From Escherichia coli (GTDB lineage Bacteria; Pseudomonadota; Gammaproteobacteria; Enterobacterales; Enterobacteriaceae), in the NCBI RefSeq assembly GCF_013315695.1, contig NZ_CP054353.1: 64,000 bases of DNA, one strand, 5' to 3'. The notes under the pieces were generated by a model, which worked only from the letters and a program-made list of their open reading frames with translations, was not told the DNA's origin and did no database searches. Positions 21,512 through 62,204 of this stretch are shown in pieces (the first letter of the stretch is position 1; each line of letters begins with the position of its first letter). Both the position numbers and the translations under genes were made by a program.

Positions 21512-24065
21512 ACCGGTAGGCGATCTGGTCGTTGATTTGAGTCTGGATGCGGCCAGATTTGACGAGCAGATGGCCAGAGTCAGGCGTCATTTTTCCGGTA
21601 CGGAAAGTGATGCGAAAAAAACAGCGGCAGTCGTTGAACAGTCGCTGAGCCGACAGGCGCTGGCTGCACAGAAAGCGGGGATTTCCGTCGGGCAGTATAA
21701 AGCCGCCATGCGTATGCTGCCTGCACAGTTCACCGACGTGGCCACGCAGCTTGCCGGCGGGCAAAGTCCGTGGCTGATCCTGCTGCAACAGGGGGGGCAG
21801 GTGAAGGACTCCTTCGGCGGGATGATCCCCATGTTCAGGGGGCTTGCCGGTGCGATCACCCTGCCGATGGTGGGGGCCACCTCGCTGGCGGTGGCGACCG
21901 GTGCGCTGGCGTATGCCTGGTATCAGGGCAACTCAACCCTGTCCGATTTCAACAAAACGCTGGTCCTTTCCGGCAATCAGGCGGGACTGACGGCAGATCG
22001 TATGCTGGTCCTGTCCAGAGCCGGGCAGGCGGCAGGGCTGACGTTTAACCAGACCAGCGAGTCACTCAGCGCACTGGTTAAGGCGGGGGTAAGCGGTGAG
22101 GCTCAGATTGCGTCCATCAGCCAGAGTGTGGCGCGTTTCTCCTCTGCATCCGGCGTGGAGGTGGACAAGGTCGCTGAAGCCTTCGGGAAGCTGACCACAG
22201 ACCCGACGTCGGGGCTGACGGCGATGGCACGCCAGTTCCATAACGTGACGGCGGAGCAGATTGCGTATGTTGCTCAGTTGCAGCGTTCCGGCGATGAAGC
22301 CGGGGCATTGCAGGCGGCGAACGAGGCCGCAACGAAAGGGTTTGATGACCAGACCCGCCGCCTGAAAGAGAACATGGGCACGCTGGAGACCTGGGCAGAC
22401 AGGACAGCGCGGGCATTCAAATCCATGTGGGATGCGGTGCTGGATATTGGTCGTCCTGATACCGCGCAGGAGATGCTGATTAAGGCAGAGGCTGCGTTTA
22501 AGAAAGCAGACGACATCTGGAATCTGCGCAAGGATGATTATTTTGTTAACGATGAAGCGCGGGCGCGTTACTGGGATGATCGTGAAAAGGCCCGTCTTGC
22601 GCTTGAAGCCGCCCGAAAGAAGGCTGAGCAGCAGACTCAACAGGACAAAAATGCGCAGCAGCAGAGCGATACCGAAGCGTCACGGCTGAAATATACCGAA
22701 GAGGCGCAGAAGGCTTACGAACGGCTGCAGACGCCGCTGGAGAAATATACCGCCCGTCAGGAAGAACTGAACAAGGCACTGAAAGACGGGAAAATCCTGC
22801 AGGCGGATTACAACACGCTGATGGCGGCGGCGAAAAAGGATTATGAAGCGACGCTGAAAAAGCCGAAACAGTCCGGCGTGAAGGTGTCTGCGGGCGATCG
22901 TCAGGAAGACAGTGCTCATGCTGCCCTGCTGACGCTTCAGGCAGAACTCCGGACGCTGGAGAAGCATGCCGGAGCAAATGAGAAAATCAGCCAGCAGCGC
23001 CGGGATTTGTGGAAGGCGGAGAGTCAGTTCGCGGTACTGGAGGAGGCGGCGCAACGTCGCCAGCTGTCTGCACAGGAGAAATCCCTGCTGGCGCATAAAG
23101 ATGAGACGCTGGAGTACAAACGCCAGCTGGCTGCACTTGGCGACAAGGTTACGTATCAGGAGCGCCTGAACGCGCTGGCGCAGCAGGCGGATAAATTCGC
23201 ACAGCAGCAACGGGCAAAACGGGCCGCCATTGATGCGAAAAGCCGGGGGCTGACTGACCGGCAGGCAGAACGGGAAGCCACGGAACAGCGCCTGAAGGAA
23301 CAGTATGGCGATAATCCGCTGGCGCTGAATAACGTCATGTCAGAGCAGAAAAAGACCTGGGCGGCTGAAGACCAGCTTCGCGGGAACTGGATGGCAGGCC
23401 TGAAGTCCGGCTGGAGTGAGTGGGAAGAGAGCGCCACGGACAGTATGTCGCAGGTAAAAAGTGCAGCCACGCAGACCTTTGATGGTATTGCACAGAATAT
23501 GGCGGCGATGCTGACCGGCAGTGAGCAGAACTGGCGCAGCTTCACCCGTTCCGTGCTGTCCATGATGACAGAAATTCTGCTTAAGCAGGCAATGGTGGGG
23601 ATTGTCGGGAGTATCGGCAGCGCCATTGGCGGGGCTGTTGGTGGCGGCGCATCCGCGTCAGGCGGTACAGCCATTCAGGCCGCTGCGGCGAAATTCCATT
23701 TTGCAACCGGAGGATTTACGGGAACCGGCGGCAAATATGAGCCAGCGGGGATTGTTCACCGTGGTGAGTTTGTCTTCACGAAGGAGGCAACCAGCCGGAT
23801 TGGCGTGGGGAATCTTTACCGGCTGATGCGCGGCTATGCCACCGGCGGTTATGTCGGTACACCGGGCAGCATGGCAGACAGCCGGTCGCAGGCGTCCGGG
23901 ACGTTTGAGCAGAATAACCATGTGGTGATTAACAACGACGGCACGAACGGGCAGATAGGTCCGGCTGCTCTGAAGGCGGTGTATGACATGGCCCGCAAGG
24001 GTGCCCGTGATGAAATTCAGACACAGATGCGTGATGGTGGCCTGTTCTCCGGAGGTGGACGATGA
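21504..24065 (+). CDS. H: Tail tape measure protein H
   Basis: 853 aa, coiled-coil rich, lambda gpH. Confidence 0.9.
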   Translation: MAEPVGDLVVDLSLDAARFDEQMARVRRHFSGTESDAKKTAAVVEQSLSRQALAAQKAGISVGQYKAAMRMLPAQFTDVATQLAGGQSPWLILLQQGGQVKDSFGGMIPMFRGLAGAITLPMVGATSLAVATGALAYAWYQGNSTLSDFNKTLVLSGNQAGLTADRMLVLSRAGQAAGLTFNQTSESLSALVKAGVSGEAQIASISQSVARFSSASGVEVDKVAEAFGKLTTDPTSGLTAMARQFHNVTAEQIAYVAQLQRSGDEAGALQAANEAATKGFDDQTRRLKENMGTLETWADRTARAFKSMWDAVLDIGRPDTAQEMLIKAEAAFKKADDIWNLRKDDYFVNDEARARYWDDREKARLALEAARKKAEQQTQQDKNAQQQSDTEASRLKYTEEAQKAYERLQTPLEKYTARQEELNKALKDGKILQADYNTLMAAAKKDYEATLKKPKQSGVKVSAGDRQEDSAHAALLTLQAELRTLEKHAGANEKISQQRRDLWKAESQFAVLEEAAQRRQLSAQEKSLLAHKDETLEYKRQLAALGDKVTYQERLNALAQQADKFAQQQRAKRAAIDAKSRGLTDRQAEREATEQRLKEQYGDNPLALNNVMSEQKKTWAAEDQLRGNWMAGLKSGWSEWEESATDSMSQVKSAATQTFDGIAQNMAAMLTGSEQNWRSFTRSVLSMMTEILLKQAMVGIVGSIGSAIGGAVGGGASASGGTAIQAAAAKFHFATGGFTGTGGKYEPAGIVHRGEFVFTKEATSRIGVGNLYRLMRGYATGGYVGTPGSMADSRSQASGTFEQNNHVVINNDGTNGQIGPAALKAVYDMARKGARDEIQTQMRDGGLFSGGGR

Positions 24066-58599: not shown

Positions 58600-59727
<1,128 letters not shown>

Positions 59728-60004
59728 TTATGTTGGCGTTTTCTATTCAGTATAGAAGTGGGAGCGACTGGGCGAGATGCGGAAGTTCTGGAATATTTCT
59801 TTTTTTTGGATGGTGACTGAAGCAAATTGGCTACATTTTGCAATGTGACCAGTTGCGTCATAGCTGGCTGGTGGCGAAGAATTTTGACGATTGCGGCATG
59901 CAGAAAAAAACGGGTTCAGCTTCAGTTGATCAAATGGGGAGTGAGAAGTCCGAAACAGGATTTACTGTATAAATAAGGGTCTTCCCCGATCATGGTGGGA
60001 AGAC

Positions 60005-61225
60005 TCAGTACGCCATATTCAGTTTCCCATAGTGGAACATAACTCCCAGTTTAAAGCGTTCCCGGTTTCGGTATCCCCTGGCCTTTATCCTCAGCAGTCT
60101 GATCTTGCTGTTCAGCGCCTCCGCATTTCCATTCGAGACGCGATGACGCATTGCATTCAGTATTCCGTATAACCGTTTTTTAATGGTTTTCGCTGCGTTT
60201 TTCATCATCGGCACATCACATTCAGACGCCAGCGATATCCACTGCAACCAGTCATTCCTGCGTTCTGTGCTCCAGGGGCGATCCCAGATATTTTTTGCCA
60301 GCTCTTTCAGTGTCCAGCACTGGCTTGTCTGTTGCATCTGTTCCCGCAACCACATCAGCTTTTCCTGCCGGGACTCAGTCATCCATTTGTCGCTGTACTG
60401 CCACAGGAAGCGGGTACCTTTGGCCTGACGACGACTTTCAACAGGGAGGTGCGGATGTTCATTCTGGCGGGTTTTATCAACCACTTCGCCCAGTTGCTTC
60501 GCCACATGGAAGCGATCGAAGGCGATTTTCTCGACCGCATTGGGTAAATGGATACGCGCTGCTCTTATATAGCCCGCATTCATGTCCATCGACAGTGTTT
60601 TGATGGCCAACAACTGACTGTCAGTAAGCGAACGGAGATAGCTGGCAAGACTCTCTGTGCCACGATCATCGGTTAATGCCAGTGCCCGCCCGTCGCGATC
60701 AGATACCACGGTTATATACCTATGCCCTTTTTTAAAGGCGACTTCGTCTACATTCATATGACGCACTGATAAAGGCTTTTTAATCCGCGACAGGCCTCGC
60801 TTAACCGCGCGGGTCATGATGCCGTCAACGGCATTCCAGCTAAGTTTAAGTTGTTTTCTGACCGCATCAACGGTGCTGATTTTAAGCCATGAGAGCACGA
60901 ACGATTCGAACAGCAGAGTGTACCGACTGCCGGAACCTGCCCACGGTACAGGCAGAGTCTGGCAGCCATGCTCCGGGCACATAACGCGGGGAACATCGGC
61001 TTCTACTAATGTCATGAACTGGCAGGTATCAAGGTGGCGCCATTTACGATGTCGGTGATCGTGAACAGAACAGGATTTCCTGCAGGTCGGACAGGTTAAC
61101 TGAGTATTTTCAGCAATTCCGACTGTAACAGTAACGGAACCTGCATTTTCATCGAGGGTAAGGGATTTAACCTGCCATGGTGCAGTCAGGTTAAGGATAT
61201 GGGCATAGAGGGATTTTTCGTCCAT
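60005..61225 (-). CDS. ISL3-family transposase
   Basis: 406 aa; N-terminal zinc ribbon (CPTC..CPEHGC); DDE-type core. Confidence 0.85.
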   Translation of the reverse strand: MDEKSLYAHILNLTAPWQVKSLTLDENAGSVTVTVGIAENTQLTCPTCRKSCSVHDHRHRKWRHLDTCQFMTLVEADVPRVMCPEHGCQTLPVPWAGSGSRYTLLFESFVLSWLKISTVDAVRKQLKLSWNAVDGIMTRAVKRGLSRIKKPLSVRHMNVDEVAFKKGHRYITVVSDRDGRALALTDDRGTESLASYLRSLTDSQLLAIKTLSMDMNAGYIRAARIHLPNAVEKIAFDRFHVAKQLGEVVDKTRQNEHPHLPVESRRQAKGTRFLWQYSDKWMTESRQEKLMWLREQMQQTSQCWTLKELAKNIWDRPWSTERRNDWLQWISLASECDVPMMKNAAKTIKKRLYGILNAMRHRVSNGNAEALNSKIRLLRIKARGYRNRERFKLGVMFHYGKLNMAY

Positions 61226-61243
61226 ATAATTTCATTCTGAAGC

Positions 61244-61762
61244 TTACTTTAAACTGATATTATTATTTTTTGCCCACTTTCTTAATCTTCCATTAGCGTT
61301 GGCGTAAGGCGAAGATGTGTTAAATGAGATCATTCTCCCCATCGTCCATTTTGTGTACCATGGTCTTCCATACAAAATATCATCGGTACGATCATTAATA
61401 AGGTTCACAATCTCATTTTTTACAGTCTGAAGTTCAGCTACTAACAACTCATAACTTAACTCACTGTAATCTGAGTAAAATTTTTGAGCAAGAAGGCCAA
61501 GCTGATTCCATTTATAGCCAGTTTCCGGAAAATCGACAGGCAGACCTTTAGCATCAGAAGCGATCCACTTTACAACAAGAGCATTCCATCCAAGCAGATA
61601 CGAAACGAGATCACGAACACTCATCTCCGTTCCTTTGGCGTGTCCGTCCATTGATTTATCTGAAGTAATTTCTGGTGGGATTGTGTTGAGGTAACTAATT
61701 AATTTACTAAAATTTTTATCAATAGCTAAAAGCAGTTCAGCTTTTGTTTGCGGCACACTCAT
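61244..61762 (-). CDS. ClbS/DfsB-family protein (DUF1706)
   Basis: 172 aa; blocks ..DGHAKGTEMSVRDLVSYLLGW.., ..DFPETGYKWNQLGLLAQKFYSDY.., ..LYGRPWYTKWTMGRMISFNTSSPYANANGRLRK.. recalled as ClbS-family signatures. Confidence 0.7.
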   Translation of the reverse strand: MSVPQTKAELLLAIDKNFSKLISYLNTIPPEITSDKSMDGHAKGTEMSVRDLVSYLLGWNALVVKWIASDAKGLPVDFPETGYKWNQLGLLAQKFYSDYSELSYELLVAELQTVKNEIVNLINDRTDDILYGRPWYTKWTMGRMISFNTSSPYANANGRLRKWAKNNNISLK

Positions 61763-61906
61763 AAGAATTCCCTCTCATGTAAAAAGAGACACCATAAAGG
61801 TACTGTGTGGTGTTTGAAAATCACTCAATTATGTACCACCCACCACAACAGGGGAAGACCCATAAATAAACAGTTATTTTGTTGAGGAAGGGTAAGATAA
61901 CTGCGG

Positions 61907-62140
61907 GTGCCTGAAGCTTTCCGGTTTCAGGTTTACTTTGAGGTCTGGAAAGATGAAGCCCCAGGAGATATTTCTATCAACCCTGGGGCTGCCACTCCAA
62001 ACCCGAACAATTTGGATGGTAGTCCCTTCTTCGCATGGAGGCAATATAAACATGCTGACGAAATATGCCCTTGTGGCAGTCATAGTGCTGTGTTTAACGG
62101 TGCTGGGATTTACGCTTCTGGTCGGAGACTCGCTGTGTGA
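61907..62140 (+). CDS. mok-type regulatory reading frame overlapping hokE (the antisense Sok RNA would lie here on the minus strand)
   Basis: Overlapping frame starting at GTG 61907 upstream of hokE; typical hok/sok architecture. Confidence 0.35.
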
Positions 62141-62204
62141 GTTTACGGTGAAGGAACGTAATATTGAGTTTAAGGCTGTTCTCGCTTACGAACCGAAGAA
62201 GTAG
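62052..62204 (+). CDS. hokE: Hok-family small toxic membrane peptide HokE
   Basis: 50 aa [50 protein letters not shown]. Confidence 0.85.

Follow-up and report, generated by a model that had tools for sequence, protein, structure and literature searches.

A closely similar system already described is the 'clbS-like transposon' of Maklin et al. 2025, in which a clbS-like gene of the DUF1706 family stands beside a single transposase gene of the ISL3 family, and which was reported from plasmids and from chromosomes of the sequence types (ST) ST131 and ST69 and of other lineages (bioRxiv 10.1101/2025.11.17.686825). In the accessible part of that preprint, the genes neighbouring the transposon are called 'otherwise unrelated', and the ends of the element, its target duplication and a LexA-box target are not defined there (10.1101/2025.11.17.686825). 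The gene pair is the one found in the insertion sequence (IS) ISEc53. A second close relative is ISKox3, an ISL3-family element of 1316 bp that is common on IncX3 and other plasmids and that, unlike ISEc53, has no passenger gene. ISEc53 as an element, the protein structure 5COF and the idea of an IS with a ClbS-like passenger are already known. Here, a stretch of 64,000 nucleotides of Escherichia coli (RefSeq assembly GCF_013315695.1, contig NZ_CP054353.1), referred to below as the window, was analysed together with other insertion sites of ISEc53 and its relatives. The window contains one copy of ISEc53, inserted between ybdK and hokE into a binding site (box) of the SOS repressor LexA. Insertion of ISEc53, of ISKox3 and of relatives with as little as 70% transposase identity is almost confined to TACTGT-N8-ACAGTA. 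The elements cut at the inner edges of both half-sites, by which the 8-bp AT-rich spacer of the box becomes the target duplication.

The ISEc53 copy upstream of hokE

A first-pass annotation of the window, made from the sequence alone, had described an ISL3-family IS of ~1.9 kb at 59965-61873, located between ybdK (58600-59718, minus strand) and hokE, upstream of the latter, bounded by imperfect inverted repeats of ~38 bp and lacking a clean 8-bp target duplication. The location and the approximate size proved right, while the edges had to be moved: the element comprises 1885 bp at 59977-61861, reading GGGTCTTCC... at its left edge (59977) and ...GGAAGACCC at its right edge (61861). Its terminal inverted repeats are 26 nt long rather than ~38 bp. 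The left one (IRL, 59977-60002, plus strand) reads GGGTCTTCCCCGATCATGGTGGGAAG and occurs as an identical 26-mer in ISKox3, and the right one (IRR, 61836-61861, minus strand) reads GGGTCTTCCCCTGTTGTGGTGGGTGG inward; both start with GGGTCTT and they match at 20 of the 26 positions. Moreover, the duplication that had been missed is perfect, with the 8 bp ATAAATAA at 59969-59976 on the left and again at 61862-61869 on the right. These 8 bp are the spacer of a LexA box, whose left half-site CTGT (59965-59968) and right half-site ACAG (61870-61873) are target DNA. The positions 59965 and 61873 coincide with the two outer limits of this palindrome, and the longer repeat, which measures 36 nt with 78% complementarity, is the sum of the termini, the duplication and the LexA half-sites.

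The ends and the duplication were fixed by alignment with insertion-free genomes, a check that had been proposed with the annotation. Removal in silico of ISEc53 and of one copy of the duplication left 558 bp, a sequence that matched at 100% the unoccupied ybdK-hokE spacer in two further E. coli genomes, and this reconstituted empty site was recovered with at least 80% coverage in 4892 out of 5426 complete E. coli genomes. In the comparison genome the empty site reads ACTGTATAAATAAACAGT. The half-sites CTGT and ACAG were also considered as parts of the IS ends and were ruled out as such, since both of them, like the duplicated bases, are present in the empty site and therefore belong to the target.

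Full-length ISEc53 was found in 656 of the 5426 complete genomes, nearly always with at least 99% identity (megablast), on chromosomes as well as on plasmids, with up to nine matching places per genome if partial and related matches are included. The copy in the window is nucleotide-identical to hundreds of other 1885-bp copies, and those that are 100% identical to it carry the RefSeq label 'ISEc53 family transposase'; this identifies the feature as a copy of ISEc53, the name being assigned by sequence identity through the annotation that RefSeq and its Prokaryotic Genome Annotation Pipeline (PGAP) give to these copies, with ISfinder as its origin. A generic ISL3 element, old or rearranged, with terminal repeats of ~38 bp and no duplication, would be in keeping with the extended 36-nt imperfect inverted repeat, which is indeed detectable. 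Such a reading is practically untenable, as it is refuted by the comparison with the empty site, which already contains the 12 outermost nt of both sides, and it is also opposed by the perfect duplication and by the identity of the window copy to so many others.

The 1885-bp unit recurs as a whole at many unrelated chromosomal and plasmid sites, each with its own 8-bp duplication, which together with the existence of an empty site is the behaviour of a mobile ISL3-family element. The passenger gene dfsB is enclosed by the inverted repeats at each site with a 1885-bp copy and is missing both from the empty site and from ISKox3, so the supposition that both genes lie within the repeats and form a transporter IS with a ClbS/DfsB passenger was borne out. 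The circumstances named beforehand as fatal to it did not arise: the ClbS-like gene was absent from the empty site of strains without the transposase, and the repeats, once corrected, are the termini of the element. The transposase gene (60005-61225, minus strand) encodes a DDE transposase of 406 aa, and its assignment to the ISL3 type likewise stood, with a match to NF033550 (E = 6e-98, 328 bits against a cutoff of 180) and the complete ISL3 set of Pfam domains, namely Zn_ribbon_ISL3 (PF14690), HTH_Tnp_ISL3 (PF13542) and DDE_Tnp_ISL3 (PF01610).

A perfect 8-bp duplication was found in 32 of 45 distinct complete copies at other sites. In the other 13, the two flanking 8-bp sequences differ and mostly both flanks are still half LexA boxes (loci L026, L031, L033, L036, L046, L072, L079, L084, L089 and L117 are among them); at L036, a umuD box stands on one side and a dinD box on the other. 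Such mismatched half-box flanks are the pattern expected from recombination, by inversion or deletion, between copies in different SOS operators. The highest number of ISEc53-matching places (nine) was seen in E. coli MS 21-1 (NZ_CP146670.1), where one copy is split by IS1A, and this strain may be a natural case of recent ISEc53 expansion.

LexA boxes as insertion targets

At the independent ISEc53 sites in complete genomes, fimB excepted, the same register was observed: CTGT-[8-bp duplication]-IS-[8-bp duplication]-ACAG. The targets reconstructed by removing the element were TACTGT-ATATAAAA-ACAGTA at umuD and, with the same sequence, at sbmC; TACTGT-ATAAATAA-ACAGTT at hokE in the window; TACTGT-ATATACAT-ACAGCA at a plasmid operon with dinI-like and umuD genes; and ACCTGT-ATCCATAA-ACAGTG at a plasmid gene for a tyrosine recombinase. 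The boxes of umuDC and sbmC are textbook examples of LexA boxes. ISKox3 was found in the LexA-box register as well, at tisB, at the umuD-like gene of a 46-kb IncX3-type plasmid and at another plasmid site.

For a wider sample, public collections were scanned for the exact 26-nt left end, which yielded 81 metagenome contigs, 29 viral or prophage contigs and 2 genomes; the scan of genome contigs with this 26-mer gave two loci only, species representatives being largely without the element. After removal of duplicate contexts, 80 distinct left flanks and 43 distinct right flanks of ISEc53, ISKox3 and relatives were retained. The left flanks had an exact CTGT at positions -12 to -9 in 64 of the 80 cases and at least three of its four bases in 75, and the right flanks had ACAG at +9 to +12 in 42 of the 43. 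Furthermore, the pre-insertion site could be rebuilt for 38 distinct copies with a perfect duplication. The column-wise consensus of these 38 targets, TACTGTATATATATACAGTA, is the LexA-box consensus, which the individual targets match at a mean of 16.9 of 20 positions, and a full CTGT-N8-ACAG box was present in 34 of them. The target in the window, TACTGTATAAATAAACAGTT, has 17 of the 20 matches. The background was at the level that chance predicts (16 CTGT-N8-ACAG sites in the same 1.06 Mb), and so random insertion would strike the centre of a box about once per 65,000 tries. Perfect boxes with perfect duplications were also found for relatives of 1315 bp with only 70-73% transposase identity, which makes the LexA-box habit a property of the clade and not of a single element.

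ISEc53 is also the element behind the well-known ISL3-type insertion in ST131 fimB. Its target, rebuilt from two loci (L004 and L046), was AAGTGT-ATATATAT-CCATCG, that is, a near half-box (GTGT) with an ideal spacer, matching the consensus at 14 of 20 positions. The duplication of the common ST131 fimB copy looks imperfect because 2 bp (AT) have been lost from its left side. This insertion seems to be a case of a box-seeking element having gone off target.

The open reading frames starting beside the split boxes encode, according to NCBIfam, UmuD or UmuD-like proteins and proteins of the DinI family, both at many sites, as well as SbmC, DinD and DNA polymerase IV (dinB). Matches to PHROGs beside the boxes were UmuD-like proteins, integrases and small prophage proteins without an assigned function, and tisB and hokE stand beside boxes in the RefSeq annotation. 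The genes umuD, dinI, sbmC, dinD, dinB, tisB and hokE are members of the LexA regulon. All of these are dispensable SOS genes, and among the collected sites no insertion was seen at recA, lexA or the uvr genes, uvrA included, where insertions are presumably harmful. This pattern might be taken to mean that the element inserts at random in AT-rich DNA and that only the copies inactivating SOS genes persist. Selection probably does filter which boxes remain occupied, but it cannot fix a register that is the same to the single nucleotide in 64 to 75 of 80 independent sites; gene inactivation could be achieved anywhere in a promoter or coding region, and the register is kept on plasmids and prophages beside genes without an assigned function. 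Since the register is conserved to the single nucleotide, selection is rejected as the cause of the pattern, and survivorship of this kind is highly improbable.

Direct recognition of the box by the transposase is the preferred explanation. The synaptic complex of the transposase would read the palindromic CTGT/ACAG half-sites symmetrically around a bendable AT spacer, and would make its 8-bp staggered cuts at the inner edges of the half-sites, like other transposons with symmetric hotspots. As LexA occupies strong boxes in undamaged cells, access should be best during the SOS response, and insertion is most plausible once LexA has left the DNA. Alternatively, the transposase might recognise LexA bound to its operator, or the DNA shape imposed by it, and integrate into the spacer framed by the dimer. 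Host-protein-tethered integration has parallels in Tn7 with TnsD and in Ty3 with TFIIIB. The target logo agrees with the LexA logo throughout its 20 positions, down to the outer TA and the alternating AT spacer, each cut lies precisely where a half-site meets the spacer, and nearly all sites adjoin genuine SOS genes, all of which would suit a guiding role of LexA. On the other hand, a symmetric consensus can be read directly by a transposase, as in the hotspots of Tn10, and the half-box of fimB was used. Moreover, comparison of the transposase with LexA for a borrowed DNA-binding domain gave no meaningful similarity, the single alignment (17 out of 62 residues, E = 0.008) falling in the transposase's C-terminal half. 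Guidance by LexA is regarded as possible but doubtful.

In the window, the hokE operator is split by ISEc53 36 bp upstream of the hok/sok regulatory RNA region (61905-62060, plus strand), which was identified with the Rfam model of sok (RF01794; 83.5 bits against a gathering score of 59, E = 2e-18). The hokE toxin gene itself (62052-62204, plus strand, 50 aa) is intact, and RefSeq annotates hokE at the equivalent position of the comparison genome; the sok RNA model together with the Hok open reading frame identifies the locus as a hok/sok type I toxin-antitoxin system. No LexA box was found inside ISEc53 (one mismatch allowed) or recreated at its junctions (two mismatches allowed), so that the hokE operator is destroyed and the genes of the IS are not visibly under LexA control. 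The insertion would uncouple the neighbouring gene from LexA, with silencing or derepression being set by the position of the promoter.

The hokE insertion seen in the window was present in only 5 of the 5426 complete genomes, one of them being MS 21-1, with a 100% match across the junction. Two further hokE loci were observed. E. coli ATCC 43896 (NZ_CP024278.1) has tandem hokE loci between ybdK and entD, with ISEc53 in the LexA box of the second, and the ST131 strain 2017_APHA (NZ_CP051615.1) has ISEc53 in the hokE box as in the window, followed directly by IS150 in place of hokE. The presence of IS150 next to ISEc53 in the latter strain indicates that the hok locus collects insertion sequences.

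Elsewhere in the window, the sole intact CTGT-N8-ACAG motif of the 64 kb (23556-23571) has the GC-rich spacer CTGTCCATGATGACAG and is unoccupied. In addition, a 79-aa protein (PHROG 3893) recurred beside the targeted boxes in nine plasmid and prophage contexts, starting ~30-37 nt from many of them and often lying upstream of umuD-like genes or divergently from dinI-like genes. Judging from these contexts, its gene seems to be regulated by SOS and to be an uncharacterised component of mobile elements.

The passenger module and its ClbS-like product

The difference between ISEc53 and ISKox3 lies in a passenger module of ~611 bp (61226-61836, minus strand), which consists of dfsB with 74 nt upstream and 18 nt downstream of it and is not present in ISKox3. 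The two elements align over the first 25 nt of the right end and then again from the start codon of the transposase gene, with ~611 bp between the right end and this codon in ISEc53 vs. ~42 nt in ISKox3. The right ends are near-identical, as opposed to the fully identical left ends, and the transposases share 90% identity; ISKox3 also makes an 8-bp duplication in a LexA-box target. ISEc53 is, in sum, built on a backbone of the ISKox3 type, with ends of 26 nt and a DDE transposase of 406 aa, plus a low-G+C module of ~0.6 kb, and it moves as one unit. The G+C content of dfsB was 37.6%, compared to 50.4% for the transposase gene, which is consistent with acquisition of the passenger from a different source.

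The two elements also differ in orientation: ISKox3 is found both ways round with respect to the SOS gene, but in ISEc53 it is nearly always the dfsB end (the right end, on the 5′ side of dfsB) that faces the gene. By a crude rule based on open reading frames, applied to loci L002-L015 and L069-L113 (ISEc53 type) and L011-L125 (ISKox3 type), the gene was only on the right-end side at nine ISEc53-type sites and only on the left-end side at two, both of which look like artefacts of the rule, while the ISKox3 copies split 9 to 8. This bias may reflect selection against transcripts that start at an SOS promoter freed from repression and read into dfsB and the transposase gene.

The dfsB gene (61244-61762, minus strand), a clbS-like gene, lies 18 nt upstream of the transposase gene on the same strand and is preceded by the Shine-Dalgarno sequence GAGGG, 8 nt ahead of the ATG. 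Its product of 172 aa (WP_000115885.1) is a DUF1706 four-helix-bundle protein. The search with a hidden Markov model that had been suggested for it, non-match to DUF1706 being the outcome that would have spoken against the ClbS/DfsB assignment, gave a match over the full length (PF08020, E = 3.3e-54, residues 1-165 on model positions 1-166 of 166), and the assignment was upheld. The four-helix bundle was established through a known structure, since the protein is 100% identical to residues 2-173 of chain A of PDB 5COF. That structure is EcDfsB of E. coli UTI89, a DfsB homologue described by Taylor et al. 2016, who left its function unassigned (PMC4773401).

ClbS, the cyclopropane hydrolase by which the pks island confers self-resistance to colibactin, is a characterised relative of the cargo protein. 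The two proteins share the DUF1706 fold family, 54% identity over 166 residues (ClbS as in PDB 6ANR) and the block around Tyr55, in which LVSY55LLGW of the cargo aligns with LVSY55LIGW of ClbS, giving LVSY55L(L/I)GW. Unlike clbS, the ISEc53 gene is carried by an IS outside the pks island, and its product has a C-terminus that is six residues longer and a predicted, ClbS-like activity. With such an activity, the cargo would act on colibactin in the cytoplasm by hydrolysing its cyclopropane warhead and might shield pks-negative hosts from the SOS-inducing genotoxin of their competitors. All 11 ClbS-like proteins expressed by Silpe et al., with 27-80% identity to ClbS, protected against colibactin, the readout being suppression of colibactin-induced SOS response and prophage induction (PMC8907063). 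The panel included an E. coli DfsB of 172 aa with 52.4% identity to ClbS (QDM73539), while WP_000115885.1 occurs in that study only in the table of BLAST matches (PMC8907063). On these grounds, we infer from the sequence that the ISEc53 cargo would protect against colibactin.

The cargo could instead be something other than a colibactin-resistance factor in E. coli, such as a hydrolase of another electrophilic natural product, a DNA-binding protector or a toxin precursor of the DfsB/Slf type. The DUF1706 family was first named for the precursor of a Paenibacillus sibling lethal factor, and the authors of 5COF, as said, assigned no function (PMC4773401). Furthermore, no NCBIfam model matched the cargo protein, and the ClbS-like activity of WP_000115885.1 is a prediction. 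Against such alternatives stand the identity to ClbS, which extends over the full length, and the protection conferred by 11 of 11 tested proteins down to 27% identity (PMC8907063). Moreover, inspection of the translation by eye revealed no obvious signal peptide or cleavable C-terminal peptide. A role unrelated to colibactin is considered unlikely.

Two observations concern the occurrence of the gene family outside ISEc53. A fragment of a ClbS/DfsB gene, 90.6% identical to the cargo, lies without the full IS on the plasmid NZ_CP178440.1 (29667-29957, corresponding to element positions 1130-1436), and it may belong to the second of the clbS-like families in the 2025 preprint, or be related to the source of the cargo. 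The strongest co-selection signal reported for the pangenome of Streptococcus pneumoniae pairs dfsB (DUF1706) with IS1381 (PMC11368177), a link which suggests that DUF1706 genes may associate with insertion sequences in other phyla too.

Comparison with other target-specific elements

Taken as a whole, the account in which ISEc53 is a transporter IS with a ClbS/DfsB cargo, whose transposase complex directly recognises LexA operators as its target, is probable. The features that the first-pass annotation had missed are the target duplication, the catalogued status of the element as ISEc53 and its insertion within the LexA operator of hokE. Several points weigh against the account and should be kept together. 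A minority of the sites were imperfect, namely fimB (GTGT-ATATATAT-CCAT) and a few flanks without a box. Direct recognition and LexA-assisted targeting predict the same logo, so that they cannot be separated by sequence data. As for the cargo, the weight of the conserved Tyr55 depends on the catalytic role of this active-site tyrosine in ClbS, which Tripathi et al. 2017 reportedly described. A consensus scan for a sigma-70 promoter upstream of dfsB found none on the minus strand, and one antisense match compared to 2.8 expected from shuffles. The tested E. coli protein QDM73539 may differ from the allele in ISEc53. Finally, the preprint on the clbS-like transposon infers resistance from structure and epidemiology only and says that experiments are still needed (10.1101/2025.11.17.686825).

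A bolder version of the account would make the ISKox3/ISEc53 clade a group of insertion sequences that seek SOS operators and integrate in physical coupling with LexA, either by recruitment or by access only after LexA cleavage, with DNA damage gating the jumps, each jump freeing one gene from LexA, and fimB being an off-target event. This version is held only tentatively. If it were true, the jumps would release error-prone polymerases, a gyrase inhibitor and membrane toxins from LexA, and the element would be seeded onto plasmids and prophages. If, in addition, the cargo neutralises colibactin, itself an SOS-inducing genotoxin, ISEc53 would both blunt the trigger of the response and rewire the response.

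The target specificity has several implications. It explains why an element widespread in the clinic is found beside umuDC-like genes, dinI and others on resistance plasmids, as with ISKox3 by the umuD-like gene of the IncX3-type plasmid, and it explains the position of the fimB insertion that is a hallmark of ST131. With every insertion an SOS function is altered, be it mutagenesis, persistence toxins or gyrase protection, and the copies create homology for rearrangements between LexA boxes. Moreover, a proposed colibactin-immunity gene of multidrug-resistant E. coli lineages rides a vehicle with a defined and predictable landing site. Insertion into the LexA box could also serve as a programmable or stress-gated integration system.

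The LexA-box targeting would be a clear example from nature of a transposable element that homes to a global regulator's operator. To our knowledge, no IS with a LexA-operator target is known, and no description of an IS targeting LexA boxes was found in a literature search that had ISfinder and subscription journals outside its reach; the chance that such a target has been described before is put at roughly one in three. Target-specific elements as such are familiar: IS1397 and ISKpn1 insert into the palindromes of repetitive extragenic palindromic sequences and bacterial interspersed mosaic elements (REP/BIME), the IS1111-attC group into the attC sites of integrons, Tn7 into attTn7 and Tn10/IS10 into GCTNAGC. 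With these, the ISEc53 clade shares the high-fidelity choice of a short, often palindromic and repeated motif, and with Tn10 also the symmetric bases flanking the staggered cut. Unlike in those systems, the targeted motif is an operator belonging to a global stress regulator, so that LexA boxes on plasmids and prophages become landing pads for the clade and each insertion edits one member of the regulon.

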